Assembly: GCA_026985995.1 (NCBI GenBank)
Contig: JALSPJ010000102.1
Location: forward strand, 1-42,792
Length of the DNA: 42,792 bases
Source: Anaerolineales bacterium
GTDB taxonomy: Bacteria; Chloroflexota; Anaerolineae; Anaerolineales; DRMV01
Direction of reading: 5' to 3'
Below are positions 2,490 to 34,629 of this stretch, one piece after another. Each line of letters opens with the position of its first letter. Within the stretch, counting starts at the first letter, position 1. The notes below the pieces were generated by a model. The model did not search any database and had not been told where the DNA came from. It was given only the letters and a program-made list of their open reading frames with translations. The position numbers were made by a program, and so were the translations under genes.

Positions 2490-2563
2490 TGGGCGGGGTG
2501 GGACTCGAACCCACGGCCTCCTCCTTGTAAGGGAGGCGCTCTAACCGGCTGAGCTACCCGCCC
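2490..2563 (-). tRNA. tRNA-Val (anticodon TAC)
   Basis: Reverse complement folds as a cloverleaf. Acceptor GGGCGGG/CCCGCCC, D arm GCTC..GAGC, anticodon stem CCTCC/GGAGG with loop CTTACAA, T arm GTGGG-TTCGAGT-CCCAC, discriminator A. CCA is not encoded. Confidence 0.93.
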
Positions 2564-2704: not shown

Positions 2705-3098
2705 GGGGATGCATGGGTTCGACGGGAGAGCGTGGGTGCCGGATGGCGAGCCGAGGTGCGCGACCTCGTAAAACCCGCGCGAGCACAAGAAGTGCCGTGC
2801 GCACTCCTGTCTCTGCCCTGCCCGTTGCGGCCTAATGCCGCAATAGCGGGGTAGGCTCCCCACAAGGCGGGAGCCCGTCCCCCGGCCCCGAACCCCGACC
2901 GGGGCCGGTGTGGGCGGCACAAAGTCGGGGTGCCGCGCCGGGCTCGCCGCGGCCCGGCGCGTAAGACCAGCGGCGGCCTCGGAGCAGCGCCCTTTGCCGG
3001 TTGTGGGCCTTCCGAGGCGCTGCAAACAACCGGCTACGCTCGTAGAAGTCCGAGCGCCCACTCTTCCGGACGCGGGTTCGATTCCCGCCATCTCCACC
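2705..3098 (+). ncRNA. ssrA: tmRNA (SsrA)
   Basis: 5' GGGGATGCATGGGTTCGACGGG pairs with 3' CATCTCC-A-CC, including a G3:U pair. T arm GCGGG-TTCGATT-CCCGC. An internal tag frame ends ...SALPVAA-TAA (stop at 2833-2835). Confidence 0.9.
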
Positions 3099-3100
3099 TC

Positions 3101-10627: not shown

Positions 10628-13600
10628 TCAGCGAAGCAACTCTTCGGCCTTCATGTAGGTGTCCAAGGCGTCTTGCAGCCGTCCGGCTTTGGCAAACGCG
10701 TCGCCCAGGAGTTGCAGCAGCTCCACGCTCATGGGGTAGTAGTACTGGGCCTGCAGCAGGTCCTCGATGACCTCGGTGAGGTATTTGCGCCGACGCACCA
10801 AGCGGCGGTAGTAACGCAGACCGGTTTCCAGCTCGTAACGGGCGATGGCCTCCCGGGCGCGGCGCAGGTCCTCTAAGTAGGGGTCGGCCTCCACCGGCAA
10901 GGGCTTGAGGGGCATGGTTTCCGGCGGCGGGATGTGTTGTTGCGTGGGCACCCACGCCGGTGGGGTGATGTCCACGGCTTCCTCTTCGTCGCTTTCGGTG
11001 ACCTCCTGGACCCACTCCAAGGCTTCTTGCCCCAAGGGGTGGGTTTCGCGCGCCTGGGCCGGGGCTTCGGCTTCGGTCGTGGGGGCCGGTGCTTCGCCGG
11101 TGGTGGCCCACTCCTGCGGTGGGAGCAGCCACTCGGGGGGTTCTTCCTCCACCTGAGGGCGCTTTCGCGACCCGGCTCCGCGGGGTTGGGCCTCCATCCA
11201 GGCCAGGTTGGCGATGGCGTCTTCCAGCGCCTCGGGGGAGGGCGGTGCCATGTCTTCCTCGGCCTCGGGGCCGGGCGGCGCTTCGGTCTTGCCGGGTTCG
11301 GGTTGGGCCTCGGCCGCGGCTTCGGCCAGCCAGTCGGGCAATTCGCCGGCTGCCGCGGCTTCGGCCTCGGCTTCTGGACGAGGTAGCGCCTCGCCCCTAC
11401 CGGGTTCGGGTTCGGGTTCGGGTTCGGCCGTGGGTTCGGACTGGGCTTCGGCCAGCCACTCGGGGAGTTCCGCGGCCTCCGAGGCTTCGGCCTCGGCCTC
11501 TGGGCGAGGCAGCGCTTCGTCCCTACCGGGTTCGGCTTCGGCCGTGGGTTCGGGTTGGGTTTCGGCCGCGGCGGGCGCTTCCGCGGCTTCGCGGAAGGTT
11601 AGCAGCTCCTCGGTCTTGGCCCCCTGCCGCGCGGCCAGCTGTTCCAGCCAGGCCAAGGCCGCCTCTTCATCGCTCAGGGCTTCCAGGGGAATTTCTGCCT
11701 CGGCCGCGGCTTCGGCTTCGGCCTCTGGGCGAGGCAGCGCCTCGCCCCTACCGGGTTCGGGTTCGGCCGTGGGTTCGGGTCGGGTCTCGGCCGCGGCTTC
11801 GGCCAGCCAGTCGGGGAGTTCCGCGGCCTCCGCGGCTTCGGCCGCGGCCTCCGGGCGAGGCAGCGCTTCGCCCCTACCGGGTTCGGGTTCAGCCGTGGGC
11901 TCGGGTTGGGCTTCGGCCGCGGCTTCGGCCAGCCACTCGGGGAGTTCGCCGGCTTCCACGGCTTCGGCCTCGGCCTCCGGGCGAGGCAACGCTTCGCCCC
12001 TACCGGGTTCGGCTTCGGCCCCGGCGGGTTCAGCCTCGGCCGCGGCTTCGGCCAGCCATTCGGGCAATTCGCCAGCGGCCGCGGGCTCGGCTTCGGCTTC
12101 CGGGCGAGGCAACGCCTCGCCCCTACGGGGTTCGGGTTCGGCTTCGGGGCCGGGCGGCGCTTCGGCCGCGGCGGCTTCTTCCGCGGCTTCGCGGAAGGTC
12201 AGCAGCTCCTCGGTCTTGGCGCCCTGCCGCGCGGCCAGCTGCTCCAGCCAGGCCAAGGCCGCCTCTTCGTCGCTCAGGGCCTCCAGGGGGATTTCTGCCT
12301 CGGCCGCGGCTTCGGCTTCGGCCTCTGGGCGAGGCAACGCCTCGCCCCTACCGGCTTCGGCTTCGGCCGTGGGTTCGGACTGGGCTTCGGCCGCGGCTTC
12401 GGCCAGCCAGTCGGGGAGTTCCGCGGCCTCCGCGGGTTCGGCCTCGGCCTCCGGGCGAGGCAACGCCTCGCCCCTACCGGGCGGCGCTTCTGCCCGGCCT
12501 TCGGCCTCGGCGGGCTCTTCCGCGGCTTCGCGGAAGGTCAGCAGCTCCTCGGTCTTGGCGCCCTGCCGCGCGGCCAGCTGCTCCAGCCAGGCCAAGGCCG
12601 CCTCTTCGTCGCTCAGGGCTTCCAGCGGGATTTCCGCCTCGGCCGCGGCTTCGGCCTCAGCCTCTGGGCGAGGCAGCGCTTCGCCCCTACCGGGTTCGGC
12701 CTCGGCCGTGGGTTCGGGTTGGGTCTCGGCCGCGGCTTCGGCCAGCCAGTCGGGGAGTTCCGCGGCCTCCGCGGCTTCGGCCGCGGCCTCTGGGCGAGGC
12801 AGCGCTTCGTCCCTACCGGGTTCGGGTTCGGCCGTGGGTTCGGGTTGGGTCTCGGCCGCGGCTTCGGCCAGCCAGTCGGGGAGTTCCGCGGCCTCCGCGG
12901 CTTCGGCCTCCGGGCGAAGCGGCGCTTCGCCCCTACCGGGTTCGGCCTCGGCGGGCTCTTCCGCGGCTTCGCGGAAGGTCAGCAGTTCTTCGGTCTTGGC
13001 CCCCTGCCGCGCGGCCAGCTGCTCCAGCCAGGCCAAGGCCGCCTCTTCGTCGCTCAGGGCTTCCAGGGGGATTTCCGCCTCGGCCGCGGGCTCGGCTTCG
13101 GCCTCGGGGCGAGGCAGCGCTTCGCCCCTACCGGGTTCGGGTTCGGCCGTGGGTTCGGGTTGGGCCTCGGCCGCGGCTTCGGCCAGCCAGTCGGGGAATT
13201 CGCCGGCTTCCGCGGGTTCGGCTTCGGCTTCTGGGCGAGGCAACGCCTCGCCCCTACCGGCCGTGGGTTCGGCCTCGGCCCCGGCGGGTGCGGCCTCGGC
13301 TGCGGCTTCGGCCAGCCACTCGGGCAATTCGCCGGCGGCCGCGGCTTCGGCCTCGGTCTCCGGGCGAGGCAACGCCTCGCCCCTACGGGGTTCGGGTTCG
13401 GCTTCGGGGCCGGGCGGTGCTTCGGCCGCGGTGGGTTCTTCCGCGGCTTCGCGGAAGGTCAGCAGTTCTTCGGTCTTGGCCCCTTGCCGCGCGGCCAGCT
13501 GTTCCAGCCAGGCCAAGGCCGCATCTTCGTCGCTCAGGGCTTCCAGGGGGATTTCCGCCTCGGCCGCGGCTTCGGCCTCGGCCTCCGGGCGAGGCAACGC

Positions 13601-16264
13601 CTCGCCCCTACCGGGCGGCGCTTCTGCCCGGCCTTCGGCCGCGGCGGCTTCTTCCGCGGCTTCGCGGAAGGTCAGCAGTTCTTCGGTCTTGGCACCCTGG
13701 CGGGCGGCCAGCTGCTCCAGCCAGGCCAGGGCCGCATCTTCGTCGCTCAGGGCTTCCAGGGGGATTTCTGCCTCGGCCGCGACTTCAGCCTCGGCTTCTG
13801 GGCGAGGCAGCGCTTCGCCCCTACCGGGTTCGGGTTCGGCCGTGGGTTCGGACTGGGCTTCGGCCGCGGCTTCGGCCAGCCACTCGGGGAGTTCACCGGC
13901 TGCCGCGGCTTCGGCTTCGGCCTCTGGGCGAGGCAGCGCTTCGCCCCTACCAGGTTCGGGTTCGGCCGTGGGTTCGGGTCGGGCTTCGGCCGCGGCTTCG
14001 GCCAGCCAGTCGGGCAATTCGCCGGCTTCCACGGCTTCGGCTTCGGCCTCTGGGCGAGGCAGCGCCTCGCCCCTACCGGGTTCGGGTTCGGCTTCGGGGC
14101 CGGGCGGTGCTTCGGCCGCGGTGGGCTCTTCCGCGGCTTCGCGGAAAGTCAGCAGTTCTTCGGTTTTGGCCCCCTGCCGCGCGGCCAGCTGCTCCAGCCA
14201 GGCTAAGGCCGCATCTTCATCGCTCAGGGCTTCCAGGGGGATTTCTGCCTCAGCCGCAGGTTCGGCTTCGGCCTCGGCTTCTGGGCGAGGCAGCGCCTCG
14301 CCCCTACCGGGTTCGGGTTCGGCCGTGGGTTCGGGTTGGGCTTCGGCCGCGGCTTCGGCCAGCCAGTCGGGCAATTCGCCAGCGGCCGCGGCTTCGGCTT
14401 CGGCCTCTGGGCGAGGCAGCGCCTCGCCCCTACCGGCTTCGGCTTCGGCCGTGGGTTCGGACTGGGCTTCAGCCGCGGCTTCAGCCAGCCACTCGGGGAG
14501 TTCGCCGGCTGCCGCGGCTTCGGCCTCCGGGCGAAGCGGCGCTTCGCCCCTACCGGCTTCGGCCTTGGTGGGCTCTTCCGCGGCTTCGCGGAAGGTCAGC
14601 AGCTCCTCGGTCTTGGCACCCTGGCGGGCGGCCAGCTGCTCCAGCCAGGCCAAGGCCGCCTCTTCGTCGCTTAGGGCTTCCAGGGGGATTTCTGCCTCGG
14701 CCGCAGGTTCGGCTTCGGCTTCTGGGCGAGGCAGCGCCTCGCCCCTACGGGGTTCGGGTTCGGCCGTGGGTTCGGACTGGGCTTCGGCCGCGGCTTCGGC
14801 CAGCCACTCGGGCAATTCGCCGGCTTCCGCGGGTTCGGCCTCGGCTTCTGGGCGAGGCAGCGCTTCGCCCCTACGGGGTTCGGGTTCGGCTTCTTCGACC
14901 GCGGCCGCGAGCCAATCGGGGAGCCCGGTTTCTTCCACGGGCGCGGCGGCTTCTTCCATCGGCGTGCTTTCCAGCCAGGTGGCCAGGTCTTCTAACGCGC
15001 TCTCTGCGTCGCCCTCGGGAAGCCAATCCGCGGTCCCCGCGGGCCCCTCTTCGGCTTCTGCCGCAGGCTCGGCCGCGGTTTCCGCTTCGGCCGCGGCTTG
15101 CTGGGCGCGCAGGGCTTGCAGCCACTCGGGAATTTCGCCCTCGACCAGCTCGGCTTCTTCTTCCTCCTCGGCCTCATCCCCGACCGGGGCCTGGGCTGCT
15201 GCGGCGTCTAAGGGAACGGACGGGTCGCGCGGCGCCCAGCCGCTCTTCTGCATCCACTCGGGGATGAGCTCCTCGGCCTGCTCGGGAGGAACATAAGGGC
15301 CACTCTCGGCCGATGTTTCCTCGGCCTCGGCCGTTTCTACCGCCTCGCTGAGGGCGAAAATTTCGTCCTCGGGTGGGCCGGTGTCCTCTTCCTCGTCCAG
15401 CAGGCCCGTTTGCCGGGCCACGGCTTCCAGTTCCTCCAGCATGGGCATTTCGGCCTCGTCGGGCGCGGGCAGGGCATCTAAGTCGCTGGTGAACTCCATC
15501 TCCAGCCGCGGGATGCGCACCTTTTCGGCCGGAACCTGCTCCGCGGTGGGGAATTCGTTGCCGACGAAGGCCTCGTAGGGGTCCAGCTCCAACACCCGGG
15601 ACCAGTATTGCTGGGCTTCTTCCTCCCGGCCCTGACGCCGCAGGATGGCGGCCATGATGCGGTTGGCCTGCAGACAGTAGGGCAGTTTTTGCAGCAGGCG
15701 CTGGGCTGTGTCGATGGCTCGCGCCCATTGCTGGGCCTCGAAGTACGCCTGGGCCAGCAGGGCCTGGGCGTCCAGGCGGCGCGGGTCTTGCTGCAGCACG
15801 GCCTGCAATTCGATGATGCTTTGGTTGTACAGTCCACTTTGCAGATAGACGCGCGCCAGAGCCACCCGGGTGAAACGAATACGCGGCGGGGCAACGCCAT
15901 CCCGCTCCCGATACAGGCGGCGCAGTTCCTCCTGGATGGCGACATGGGTGGGCTGGGCCTCGAACGCGCGCTCCATGTGCCAGATGGCCGCGTCCAGGTT
16001 GCCCTCTTCTTCGCGGATGGTGGCCATGCCGAAATGGGCCAAAAAATCGTCGGGCACAGCCGACAGCACCCGTTGGAAGAGGTCCGCGGCCTCGGGAAAA
16101 CGCCGGTTGCTGAGGTAGATTTCCCCCAGCACCCGATAGACAGGCAGATATTTGGGGTAATGGCGCAGGATGTGCCGGGCGTGCAGAATCGCCTCTTCGT
16201 AGCGCTCGTCCTGCACCATTTCTACAATTTGTTGCAGATAAGTGCGCAAACCGATTTCGTTCAT
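10628..16264 (-). CDS. Giant (1878 aa) TPR-flanked, highly acidic modular repeat protein
   Basis: N-terminal TPR region (about 290 aa) and a C-terminal TPR-like region are joined in one frame by an Ala/Glu/Pro-rich array. The ATG at 16264 begins [14 protein letters not shown]; the track ORF starts 29 codons upstream. Confidence 0.85.
11290..14893 (-). repeat. In-frame tandem array: 23 H modules ([14 protein letters not shown]) followed by 15 W units (ELP[ED][17 protein letters not shown]) or 8 B units ([11 protein letters not shown][ED][29 protein letters not shown])
   Basis: Counted by hand on the DNA. Each H module contains the 21-nt palindrome GGGCGAGGC-nnn-GCCTCGCCC (example 11727-11747). 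First copy at 11376-11396, last at 14850-14870. Units are near-identical at DNA level. Confidence 0.9.
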
Positions 16265-16308
16265 GGTCGTGCCTCGCCGCGCGCCGAAATGCGGGTGAAC
16301 CTGGCAAT

Positions 16309-16337
16309 AGTATATCAACAATCCACAACCTTGTCCA
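16309..16337 (-). promoter_or_regulatory. Putative sigma-70-type promoter of the giant gene (TGGACA-17-TATACT)
   Basis: On the minus strand the -35 TGGACA is at 16337-16332, followed by a 17-nt spacer and the -10 TATACT at 16314-16309. This lies about 45 nt upstream of the ATG. Confidence 0.5.
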
Positions 16338-16369
16338 TGACCCGCGACCATATAAGAGGAAGTCGCGGC

Positions 16370-25383: not shown

Positions 25384-25395
25384 AAGGTAGAGGCT

Positions 25396-25460
25396 GGTAG
25401 TTGGTAGTTGGTAGTTGGTAGTTGGTGGTTGGTGGTTGGTGGGTTGTGGTTGGTGGGTGG
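25396..25460 (+). repeat. Heptad tandem repeat GGTAGTT x4 degrading to GGTGGTT/GGTGGGT
   Basis: Directly visible: ggtagttggtagttggtagttggtagttggtggttggtggttggtgggttgtggttggtgggtgg. Confidence 0.9.
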
Positions 25461-28036: not shown

Positions 28037-28372
28037 GGGGCTCTCCCTGCGGGGTGGGGCGGGGCTATCGAAAAAGCCCCGAGCAGGCACCCCGACGGCA
28101 CCCGGAGACACCACCTTAGGGCTGCTTCCTCTCGGACCTGACCCGGTTCGGTGGGCTCCGCCGCGTCGGACCCACTCGGGGCGCCTCTAACTATACCCAA
28201 AAACCCGGCCCGCGTCAACGGCCGAGCAACACGGCCCCGGGGCTTTTTAACGCCCACGGCCTCCACAACGCCGATTCACACATCGTCCTCCTTGGGCGGT
28301 TACGCGAGCTTTGGTAACATTTCAAGCAACGGCGCGCCAGGAGCGGGACGGCAGACAACCCAGGAGACGACG

Positions 28373-32439: not shown

Positions 32440-32513
<74 letters not shown>

Positions 32514-32586: not shown

Positions 32587-34629
32587 ATGGCCAAAAGCAG
32601 CGAAGTCTTGCTGGCTTTCAACGAACTCACCCAAACTCGCGAACTGCCCCCCGAACGCATCCTCGACGCGCTCCGGGACGCGCTCATCGCGGCCTATCGC
32701 AAGGTGCACAACGCGCCCGCCTCCCAACAAGTCGAGGTGGAATTCGACCTGCCCAACGGGCGCATCACCCTGCTGGTGGAAAAAGAAGTGGTGGACGAAG
32801 TGCGCGACCCGCGCACCGAAATCTCCCTTGAGCAGGCGCGCCGCTTTCGCCCCGATGCCCAGGTGGGCGACATCGTCATGGTGCCCATGGACCCGTCCAC
32901 CTTTGGGCGCATCGCCGCGCAGGTCAGCCGCCAGGTCATCAAACAGCGCCTGCAAGACGCCGAGCGGCAAATGCAATATGAATACTACAGCCAGCTCAAG
33001 GGCGAAATCGTCCACGGCATCGTGCAGGCCATCAACGCCCACGAAGTGGTGGTCGGGCTCGACAAGCGCGCCGAAGGGCACCTGCTCAAAAAGGAACAAA
33101 TCCCCGGCGAGCGTTTTCAGGTGCACGACCGGGTGCGGGCCCTGCTTTTGGATGTGGAAAAGACCACCCGCGGGCCCTACATCATCCTCTCCCGCGCGCA
33201 TCCCAACTTCCTGCGGCGCTTGCTGGAGGAAGAAGTACCCGAAATCCACCGGGGGGAAGTGGAAATTCGCGCCGTGGCCCGAGAAGCCGGTCGGCGCTCC
33301 AAAGTGGCCGTGTCGGCCATCGCGCCCAACATCGACCCCGTGGGCGCGTGCGTGGGCATTCGCGGCTCCCGCATCCAAACCATCATGCGCGAGCTGCACA
33401 ACGAGAAAATCGATGTCATCCAGTGGGACCCCAACCCCGCGGTGTTCATCGCCAAGGCCCTGAGCCCGGCCCGGGTGCTGGGCGTTTACCTGCAGGAAGG
33501 GGAAGGGCCCCGCACCGCGGTGGTGGTGGTGCCCGAAGACCAGCTCAGCCTGGCCATTGGTCGGGAAGGGCAAAATGTGCGCCTGGCGGCCAAACTCACC
33601 CGCTGGCGCATCGACATCAAGAGCCTCAGCGAAGCAGCCCAGGACGCGCTGAGCAAACTGTATCGGGACGAGGCCTTCGCCCCCCTGCTGGAGGCCGAAC
33701 ACGACACCCTGGAGCAGGTGGAGGCCATCTTAGAGAAGAAACAGGCCGGCCGGCCCCTGACCCCCGAGGAATACAACTTCCTCTTCCAGTTCGTGGACCG
33801 GGTGGAGCGGGGCATGTTGGCCGAGCTGCGGGCCCGCCGGGAAGCCGAAGTCGCGGCCCTGGCCGAGCTGCGCCGCGGCATTCCCGAGGCCGCGTTCGAA
33901 ACGCCCCTGGACGAGCTGGGCCTCTCCCCGCGGCTCATCATCAGCCTTACCGAAGCCGGCTACCACAGCGTGGGCGACCTCATCATGGCCCTGCGGCAGG
34001 ACCCGGACGCCATTCTGGCCCTGCAAGGCGTGGGGCCGCGCACCATGGAAGCCCTGCAGCAGGCGGTGGAAGCCTACCTGGCCGAGCATGCGGCCGAAAT
34101 CGAAGCCGAAGCCGCGGCCGAGGCCGAGGAAGAAGCCGCGCCGGGCCCCGAAGAGACCGAAGCCGCAGCCGAACCCCAGGCCGAAGCGCCCCAGGCCGTG
34201 GAAGCCACCGCAGCCGAGCCGGTCTCGGGCGAAGCCCTTCCCCCTGACGAAGCCCCCGAGGCCGAACCCGAGGCCGTGCCCGTGCCCGAGCCCAGCGTGG
34301 CGGACCTCATCGTGGCCGAAGCCGAGCCTTTGCCCCCGGCCCCCGAGGCCGAAGCCGAACCCGAACCCCGGAGGGGCGAAGCGTTGCCTCGCCCAGAAGC
34401 CGAGGCCGAAGCGCCTTCCCTGGAAGAGCTCTTCTCCACCGAGCGGGTGCTGGGCACGCCCGAAAGCGCGCTGCTGACCGAAGCCGACGAGGAAGAAGAG
34501 GCCGCGGAGCCCGAGCCGCCCAAGAAGAAGAAAAAGAAGAAGCGCAAGAAGCGCGGCCCCCGCTACCGCGACCTGGAAGACGACGACGAGTACTTCGGGG
34601 GCCGACGCCGCGGCGATTGGGATTGGTAA
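32587..34629 (+). CDS. nusA: Transcription termination/antitermination factor NusA with a long acidic C-terminal extension
   Basis: NusA N-terminal domain, S1 (GEIVHGIVQ), KH1/KH2 (EIRAVAREAGRRSKVAV...GACVGIRGSRIQ...LAIGREGQNVRLA), a helix-hairpin-helix region, and then a roughly 180-aa Ala/Glu/Pro tail ending KKKKKKKRKKRG...RRRGDWDW. Confidence 0.93.
   Translation: MAKSSEVLLAFNELTQTRELPPERILDALRDALIAAYRKVHNAPASQQVEVEFDLPNGRITLLVEKEVVDEVRDPRTEISLEQARRFRPDAQVGDIVMVPMDPSTFGRIAAQVSRQVIKQRLQDAERQMQYEYYSQLKGEIVHGIVQAINAHEVVVGLDKRAEGHLLKKEQIPGERFQVHDRVRALLLDVEKTTRGPYIILSRAHPNFLRRLLEEEVPEIHRGEVEIRAVAREAGRRSKVAVSAIAPNIDPVGACVGIRGSRIQTIMRELHNEKIDVIQWDPNPAVFIAKALSPARVLGVYLQEGEGPRTAVVVVPEDQLSLAIGREGQNVRLAAKLTRWRIDIKSLSEAAQDALSKLYRDEAFAPLLEAEHDTLEQVEAILEKKQAGRPLTPEEYNFLFQFVDRVERGMLAELRARREAEVAALAELRRGIPEAAFETPLDELGLSPRLIISLTEAGYHSVGDLIMALRQDPDAILALQGVGPRTMEALQQAVEAYLAEHAAEIEAEAAAEAEEEAAPGPEETEAAAEPQAEAPQAVEATAAEPVSGEALPPDEAPEAEPEAVPVPEPSVADLIVAEAEPLPPAPEAEAEPEPRRGEALPRPEAEAEAPSLEELFSTERVLGTPESALLTEADEEEEAAEPEPPKKKKKKKRKKRGPRYRDLEDDDEYFGGRRRGDWDW
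34351..34410 (+). repeat. In-frame copy of the H module of the giant-gene array inside the nusA tail
   Basis: 58/60 nt identical to the reverse complement of 14834-14893. Encodes [20 protein letters not shown] in both genes. Palindrome at 34374-34394. Confidence 0.9.

Follow-up and report, generated by a model that had tools for sequence, protein, structure and literature searches.

A segment with the core of a repetitive extragenic palindrome common to a giant TPR gene and nusA of an Anaerolineales bacterium, and its probable origin by short-patch copying

The locus

This report concerns a 60-nt block in the gene for the transcription factor NusA of an Anaerolineales bacterium (Chloroflexota), which is almost identical to a repeat segment of an unrelated giant gene on the opposite strand and which contains a small palindrome. 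The window, i.e. the whole stretch of DNA analysed, comprises 42,792 nt (contig JALSPJ010000102.1 of assembly GCA_026985995.1). The genes and elements on which the argument turns, including the cores that we assign below to the repetitive extragenic palindromes (REPs), are as follows.

32587..34629, plus strand: nusA, encoding 680 amino acids (aa) with NusA_N, S1, KH and HhH domains and a C-terminal extension (~160-180 aa) for which disorder is predicted over most of its length
34351..34410, plus strand: the nusA block, NusA aa 589-608, a 58/60 match with a segment of the giant-gene repeat
34370..34394, plus strand: REP-like core of nusA, with tag GGAG, stem GGGCGAAGC (34374-34382), loop GTT (34383-34385) and stem GCCTCGCCC (34386-34394)
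10628..16351, minus strand: giant gene of tetratricopeptide repeat (TPR) type, an open reading frame (ORF) of 1907 aa with TPR domains at both ends
11376..14871, minus strand: span with 23 in-frame REP cores (GTAG + GGGGCGARGCGYTGCCTCGCCC), which encode (G/R)RGEALPRP
14834..14893, minus strand: best-matching extant unit of the donor type (58/60), the first of the array in gene orientation

The identity of nusA is clear from its domains (Pfam NusA_N 1.7e-32, KH_5 1e-27, S1 1e-7), and in relatives the gene order is nusA-ylxR-infB-rbfA-truB. The ORF of the giant gene begins 28 codons before a methionine that aligns with the starts of its orthologues P0124 and P0125; to judge from the alignment, the true start is probably this Met, at 16267. 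The units of the central array measure 126, 213, 339, 441 and 483 nt, all multiples of 3, and their repeat motifs, of 13 and 33 aa, are connected by linkers in which 13 residues follow (G/R). When up to 3 mismatches were allowed over the whole window, the 22-mer core GGGGCGARGCGYTGCCTCGCCC was found 23 times in the giant gene, once in nusA and nowhere else. The tag GTAG is present in 23/23 of the giant-gene copies and is followed by a GC-rich stem of 9 bp and a loop of 3 nt; in two units (12912-12933 and 14529-14550, minus strand) a compensated GAAGC/GCTTC stem gives a perfect hairpin and changes the peptide from GEALPRP to GEAPLRP. The exact sequence of the giant protein had no match in the protein collection.

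The block shared by nusA and the giant gene

The original prediction, which was made from the letters of the sequence, held that the block matches 14834-14893 at 58 of 60 positions and that both mismatches are synonymous, and this was reproduced by a search of the window followed by translation. The mismatches lie at 34371 (G vs T; CGG/CGT, Arg) and 34384 (T vs C; TTG/CTG, Leu), and the two segments encode an identical peptide of 20 aa. This counterpart, with its 2 mismatches, is the single further match to the 60-mer in the whole window at up to 3 mismatches, and shuffled sequence gave 0 matches. No Rfam family matches the block. Identity to the best donor copy is lost sharply at both block ends, as had been noticed, and the palindrome at 34374-34394 and the two bracketing octamers GAAGCCGA (34351-34358 and 34396-34403) are present as described. 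The nusA stem has one A.C mismatch, and the tag of the nusA copy, GGAG, is degenerate in comparison with the GTAG of the donor copies.

It might be supposed that two low-complexity sequences have converged, since both regions are rich in Glu, Ala and Pro, and chance matches of 24-35 nt between such tails do occur. However, when all 60-mers of nusA were slid along the giant gene, the best ungapped identity of any other 60-mer, acidic tail included, was 45/60. Two identical peptides at the local codon usage would be expected to agree in 8.5 codons, and the probability of observing agreement in at least 18 of 20 is ~1e-5. The dismissal of convergence in the original prediction therefore stands, and we regard this explanation as barely credible. 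A search for other giant-gene patches in the window or its relatives returned only low-complexity matches of 24-35 nt, which is background.

A second stretch encoding GEALPP (GGGCGAAGCCCTTCCCCCTGAC, peptide SGEALPPD) lies upstream in the nusA tail at 34227-34248 and is common to the sister strains. It resembles the REP-derived GEALPRP and is inconspicuous in the 60-mer scan; it could be an older decayed copy or a chance resemblance.

The recipient site

In an AlphaFold2 prediction made with 24 orthologues the core of NusA is confidently modelled over residues 1-517. The predicted local distance difference test score (pLDDT) is below 50 over residues 518-609 apart from two isolated residues, and this region includes the block. 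A short helix is predicted at 612-617 (LEELFS), in which L612 and F616 are invariant or nearly so among 24 block-free orthologues. The original prediction had seen a continuation of the shared segment downstream of the block (PSLEELFS vs IPLEALSD); this claim is not upheld, the sequence in question being native NusA. The block thus occupies a hypervariable linker, predicted to be disordered, directly before the conserved LEELFS motif, and the linker at this site varies in both sequence and length among orthologues. In this Chloroflexota lineage the C-terminal extension of NusA, ~180 aa long (aa 500-680, window 34090-34629), consists of an acidic, proline-rich linker, the conserved LEELFS helix, a lysine-rich stretch (KKKKKKKRKKR) and a terminal arginine-rich region with a ...GDWDW/DWEDW motif.

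Strain comparison

Four contigs carry NusA sequences of the same 90% cluster: the window, L127, L124 and L125. Contig L127 (GCA_054023055.1) differs from the window at 5 of the 2043 nt of nusA (99.7% identity), none of them in the block, and both carry the block. Contig L124 (GCA_054026775.1; 98.4% identity over the first 1500 nt) lacks it and has at this site a different 47-nt segment encoding EVAAGAAEGEAAPQPEAAEAEA, and L125 (GCA_054017975.1; 97.1% over the first 1500 nt) also lacks it and has a shorter segment, ESPAPTEEAPT. The block is absent as well from L120 and L121 (~80-82% nucleotide identity) and from the proteins P0003-P0018, and in the more distant orthologues the stretch from the conserved ADLIVAEAEP to PLEELFS is an unrelated linker of comparable length. 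It is, then, a strain-level presence/absence polymorphism in nusA and a very recent one. This bears out the claim of a recent transfer, the block being polymorphic among strains that are 97-99.7% identical in nusA and missing from all more distant orthologues. The alignment of orthologues had been proposed as a check, and the 20 codons proved not to be common to them. An ancient domain shared by the two proteins is highly improbable, given that only two near-identical strains, of all the NusA orthologues, carry the block.

The comparison with L124 defines the limits of the patch.

34355..34398, plus strand: minimal replaced tract, holding 24 of the 57 differences between the window and L124; ~44 nt replace ~47 nt
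34399..34412, plus strand: right microhomology GCCGAGGCCGAAGC, found alike in the window and L124 alleles and in the giant-gene units

On the left the tract is adjoined by a flank GAAGCCGAAG, ending at 34354, which likewise occurs in both of these alleles and in the giant-gene units. Both ends of the tract are therefore abrupt and fall within sequence shared by the donor and the pre-event recipient, as would be expected of a conversion or template switch. Outside 34355-34398 the window and L124 differ at 1.6% of the other 2000 nt. Within the tract, the 17 nt to the left of the REP (CCGAACCCGAACCCCGG) match the flank of the giant-gene units, lie outside the REP consensus and are absent from every other nusA allele. 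This implies that the copy was templated on a unit of the giant-gene type and was not the insertion of a bare REP. The ectopic conversion through GAAGCCGA-type microhomology that had been suggested agrees well with a patch of ~44 nt between the pre-existing GAAGCCGAAG and GCCGAGGCCGAAGC.

The native segment of L124, EGEAAPQPEA, was considered as a decayed or reversed REP or as another giant-gene unit, and was rejected; its best identity to the array is 33/47, which is background.

The probable metagenomic origin of the assembly, and the difficulty of assembling a repeat array, raise the question of whether a chimeric join or mis-placed repeat reads could have produced the block. Against this stand the small size of the patch (only ~44 nt), its being in frame with authentic nusA on both sides, and its differences, at 2 or more positions, from every giant-gene copy. 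Moreover, the identical block is found in the independently assembled contig L127 in the company of 5 other differences in nusA. An artefact of this kind would be most surprising.

The tail of nusA is mosaic. Compared with the window, L125 is only 84.9% identical over the last 540 nt, with large indels (window 34089-34232), vs 97.1% over the first 1500 nt, and this suggests repeated replacement or indel turnover of the linker. One might consequently propose that the block-bearing allele as a whole came in by homologous recombination from a different strain or population, where the conversion had taken place, so that the local giant gene was not the donor; that no local unit matches the block at 60/60 would fit such an import. 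The window, however, departs from L124 at the background rate outside 34355-34398, with no extended divergent tract, and the cassette would in any case have originated from a repeat of the giant-gene type. We consider this version of events improbable.

As to the direction of transfer, a sister species (GCA_964446575.1) has a nusA (L123/P0002) without the REP and an orthologue of the giant gene (L128/P0124) with it. L128 holds three exact copies of GGTAGGGGCGAGGCGTTGCCTCGCCC and ~8 decayed ones (AGG -> CGG, broken stems). The donor family is hence older than the recipient copy, and since the REP is found in L128 and not in L123 the direction is from the giant gene to nusA. By these comparisons of sequence, the REP in the giant gene predates the split of the species and the nusA copy is younger than the divergence of the strains. 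A further orthologue of the giant gene, L142/P0125, has only GGCGAGGCCCTGCTGCCCGAGGCC, possibly the decayed remnant of a copy.

The REP nature of the core

The core of the block corresponds to a GTAG-tagged REP hairpin, GTAGGGGCGAGGCGCTGCCTCGCCC. A genome scan for the 22-mer covered one genome per species, and the counts given here refer to the matches listed, among which the source genome does not figure. The 22-mer occurs in at least 119 loci, from Anaerolineae, Thermomicrobium, Nitrospirota, Acidobacteriota, Desulfuromonadales, Abditibacteriaceae and other groups. Among the matches listed, GTA precedes 106 of 130, and a second hairpin ending in GCCCCTAC (CCCCTAC) follows within 70 nt in 44 of 130, resulting in a head-to-head doublet. 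Many of the listed loci (of 8 kb each) possess several REP copies, and in these other genomes the sequence beyond the REP elements is unrelated between loci. The stem GGGCGAGGC/GCCTCGCCC has 9 bp and a loop of 3 nt, with 87.7% of cells paired over 35 copies and an A.C mismatch in 9 distinct copies.

There are also tandem arrays in which the REP and its flanking DNA recur every 30-270 nt (L009:4195-4973, L076:4000-4659, L131, L140 and L141, from Thermomicrobium, Anaerolineales and metagenome contigs). They resemble the clustered GTAG-23 blocks of Thermomicrobium roseum.

The GTAG tag, the doublets, the multi-copy spread and a link to REP-associated tyrosine transposases (RAYTs) match the signature of the GTAG-tagged REP superfamily, and on this basis the palindrome is assigned to it. 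Its GC-rich stem-loop has the proportions of the superfamily (stem 6-13 bp, loop mostly 2-3 nt), and an unpaired GTAG stands at one end of the giant-gene copies. Dispersed and mostly extragenic copies are found in other genomes. In the sampled DNA of the lineage (~150 kb, consisting of the window and L120-L128) every copy lies within a gene, either the giant gene or nusA; this DNA contains no intergenic copy of the REP and no other convincing GTAG-hairpin family, and no RAYT was found in the window or related loci. A pattern restricted to the flank, CCSGKAGGGGCGARGCGYTGCCTCGCCC, matched 13 loci in metagenomes, all of them non-coding REPs or short REP arrays of other organisms and none from the source lineage.

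Selection on the hairpin within the genes was considered and is not supported. Over the 35 copies there was no covariation beyond that of shuffles, and the fold energies are ordinary (z = -0.32 for the nusA block and z = +0.34 for the best donor copy).

The second suggestion of the original prediction, a palindromic element tolerated in frame, is correct in so far as the palindrome is a REP. It does not extend to an independent insertion into nusA, given the 17 nt of giant-gene flank. An independent insertion would involve RAYT-mediated single-strand transposition, with the identity of the flanks reflecting a similar low-complexity EAEPEP target. In its favour, the core is a bona fide member of a GTAG-REP family that is RAYT-linked elsewhere, the REP recurs in frame in other phyla, within such unrelated proteins as UvrD/PcrA (in a linker), MurD and RAYTs, and intragenic REPs have been documented (PMC3733652). 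Against it, the left flank is specific to the giant gene and absent from all other nusA alleles, REP flanks are unrelated in other genomes, no intergenic REP and no RAYT was seen in the ~150 kb of lineage DNA, and the nusA tag is GGAG. Independent insertion thus seems to us unlikely. For the giant gene itself, the amplification of the REP looks like tandem duplication of coding units rather than transposition, because the ~150 kb of lineage DNA holds no intergenic REP copy and no RAYT.

Proposed mechanism

We consider it likely that the block was copied from a repeat unit of the giant gene into nusA by short-patch ectopic gene conversion or a template switch. In this scheme a fossil hairpin of the GTAG type would have become part of the coding repeat of the giant gene, and the REP-bearing unit would then have been amplified there by tandem duplication. 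The segment of one unit would have been copied non-reciprocally, by short-patch ectopic conversion or by a template switch during replication, into the acidic, proline-rich and presumably disordered linker of NusA. The left anchor would have been a sequence of the GAAGCCGAA type and the right one GCCGAGGCCGAAGC, both of which nusA already had, and ~44 nt would have overwritten ~47 nt of native linker with the frame kept. A fork stall induced by the hairpin is a plausible trigger, although we infer this promoting role, as well as the molecular mechanism, from the arrangement of the sequences.

Several observations weigh against copying from the giant gene. The left anchor amounts to 4-10 nt with the best extant unit; for units of the CCCGGCCCCGAAGCCGAA type it extends to ~18 nt, if a one-base indel and a slip of 6 nt are allowed. 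Homology of this length is shorter than RecA-dependent conversion usually needs; template switching is accordingly favoured over classical RecA-dependent conversion. No 60/60 donor unit (CCCCGG/T-AGGGGCGAAGCGTTG...) was found among the extant giant-gene copies, the best being 58/60. The nusA copy combines variants (CCCCG-, GAAGC, the GTT loop) which are carried by no single present unit, and its tag is GGAG, not GTAG. Since the event the donor unit may itself have altered, it may lie in an unsampled part of the genome, or 1-2 substitutions may have followed the transfer. A third locus elsewhere in the genome could have been the donor, and a RAYT could be present elsewhere in the genome. Lastly, the array derives from what is probably a short-read metagenome assembly, and its copy number and order may be imperfect.

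The overwriting of the linker is probably neutral. We take neutrality as the default because there is no evidence of selection on either the structure or the peptide.

The same REP within other proteins

In three metagenome-assembled genomes (MAGs) of Acidobacteriota the REP lies within RAYT ORFs (L044:2374-2997, plus strand; L088:7121-7807, minus strand; L107:2927-3556, plus strand). These ORFs possess the motifs YFVTVCT, VMPNHLHGI and YIxNNPL, and match the NCBIfam model of the REP-associated tyrosine transposase, NF047646 (E ~1e-18, with a score below the curated cut-off since the REP doublet splits the match in two), and Pfam Y1_Tnp. In all three a 57-nt REP doublet (GTAG-hairpin/hairpin-CTAC) is in frame, with the HUH motif before it and the C-terminal Tyr region after it; we found no description of an in-frame REP doublet within a RAYT in PMC3733652.

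RGEALPRP is also encoded in frame in the linker of UvrD/PcrA of a Pelobacter MAG, between UvrD_C and the tudor domain (L031:1865-4249, plus strand, aa 696-703), and in a MurD between the N and middle domains (L081:2947-4623, plus strand, aa 179-186). UvrD and MurD read the REP in the frame that the giant gene and nusA use. In the reverse orientation the REP encodes QGEAAPRPY, in a Trans_reg_C + TPR protein (L017:3555-5429, plus strand, aa 127-134). The coding status of REPs elsewhere was assessed by a Pfam-based check of 10 cases, of which 3 were convincing; the test for stop-free stretches is uninformative in GC-rich DNA.

One could imagine that the REP cassette is active, not passive. Its hairpin would stall replication, cause template switching and so repeatedly seed an (R)GEALPRP module in disordered linkers (NusA, UvrD/PcrA, MurD, RAYT), or else the shared peptide would be a short linear motif linking NusA to the partners of the giant TPR protein. 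We think this quite unlikely; if it were true that seeding is active, REPs would be a generator of linker diversity.

Comparison with known systems

GTAG-tagged REPs are known in the Chloroflexi, and Thermomicrobium roseum has them in clustered arrays (Di Nocera et al. 2013, PMC3733652). Tandem reiteration of REP clusters along with the DNA that flanks them has been described, and in-frame REPs have been reported in known proteins including UvrD and TPR proteins, where it was suggested that they are tolerated in flexible linkers (PMC3733652). Their link with RAYTs is documented (PMC3733652; Nunvar et al. 2010, PMC2817692). NusA is missing from the REP-bearing proteins that the supplement of PMC3733652 lists. 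The elements described here share with these REPs the GTAG tag, the 9-bp GC-rich stem and 3-nt loop, the multi-copy nature, the head-to-head doublets, the RAYT link and the occurrence in Chloroflexi. They differ in that the REP lies within a coding repeat unit amplified 23-fold in one gene, in that the sampled ~150 kb of the lineage has no dispersed extragenic copies, and in that the nusA copy came with non-REP flank of the giant gene.

REPIN-RAYT systems, reportedly treated by Bertels and Rainey in 2011, are comparable in so far as the same 22-mer forms GTAG-hairpin ... hairpin-CTAC doublets elsewhere and co-occurs with RAYT genes. The window, on the other hand, holds single REPs only, with no doublet and no RAYT, and the hairpin is degenerating.

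The Rickettsia palindromic elements (RPE), of which Ogata and colleagues wrote in 2000, are said to be selfish palindromic DNA inserted in frame in protein-coding genes. RPE-1 measures ~100-150 bp and is dispersed over many genes by insertion. As with the RPE, a palindromic repeat is tolerated in frame in an essential or housekeeping gene and adds a short extra peptide. The present element has a 25-nt core of unrelated sequence and one secondary host gene, and it replaced sequence rather than being purely inserted; it is not a 100-150-bp element of the RPE sequence families found in many genes, and the resemblance is an analogy only.

Ectopic gene conversion or template switching between repeats is known in bacteria, for example in the cassette-to-expression-site conversion of antigenic variation. 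The likeness consists of a short donor tract copied non-reciprocally, short shared borders and a donor in a multi-copy array. In contrast to antigenic variation, nothing here points to a programmed system or to selection, the anchors are ~4-14 nt and the recipient is an unrelated housekeeping gene.

Other features of the region

The window includes a gene for transfer-messenger RNA (2705-3099, plus strand), two tRNAs (2490-2563, minus strand, and 32440-32511, plus strand, one of them directly upstream of nusA) and a small signal recognition particle RNA (28078-28177, minus strand). A heptamer tandem repeat, (TGGTGGT)n, of 9.4 copies is located at 25395-25460. In two of the relatives a gene for an intein-bearing RtcB RNA ligase lies ~7 kb downstream of nusA (L125:19663-22043, minus strand; L127:10240-12627, minus strand), and its counterpart in the window runs past the window end.

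Significance

Since in-frame REPs and ectopic conversion are both already established, the case represents no new kind of system. What is new is a REP fixed in a 23-fold coding repeat, and its secondary spread by recombination into nusA as a strain polymorphism. It is an unusually clean natural case of a fresh transfer, in which one can see the donor family, the polarity, the borders of the patch and the allele that preceded the event. In Chloroflexota NusA the disordered C-terminal linker tolerates being overwritten in this way, and REPs can become fixed coding repeat units and then spread by recombination as well as by transposition.

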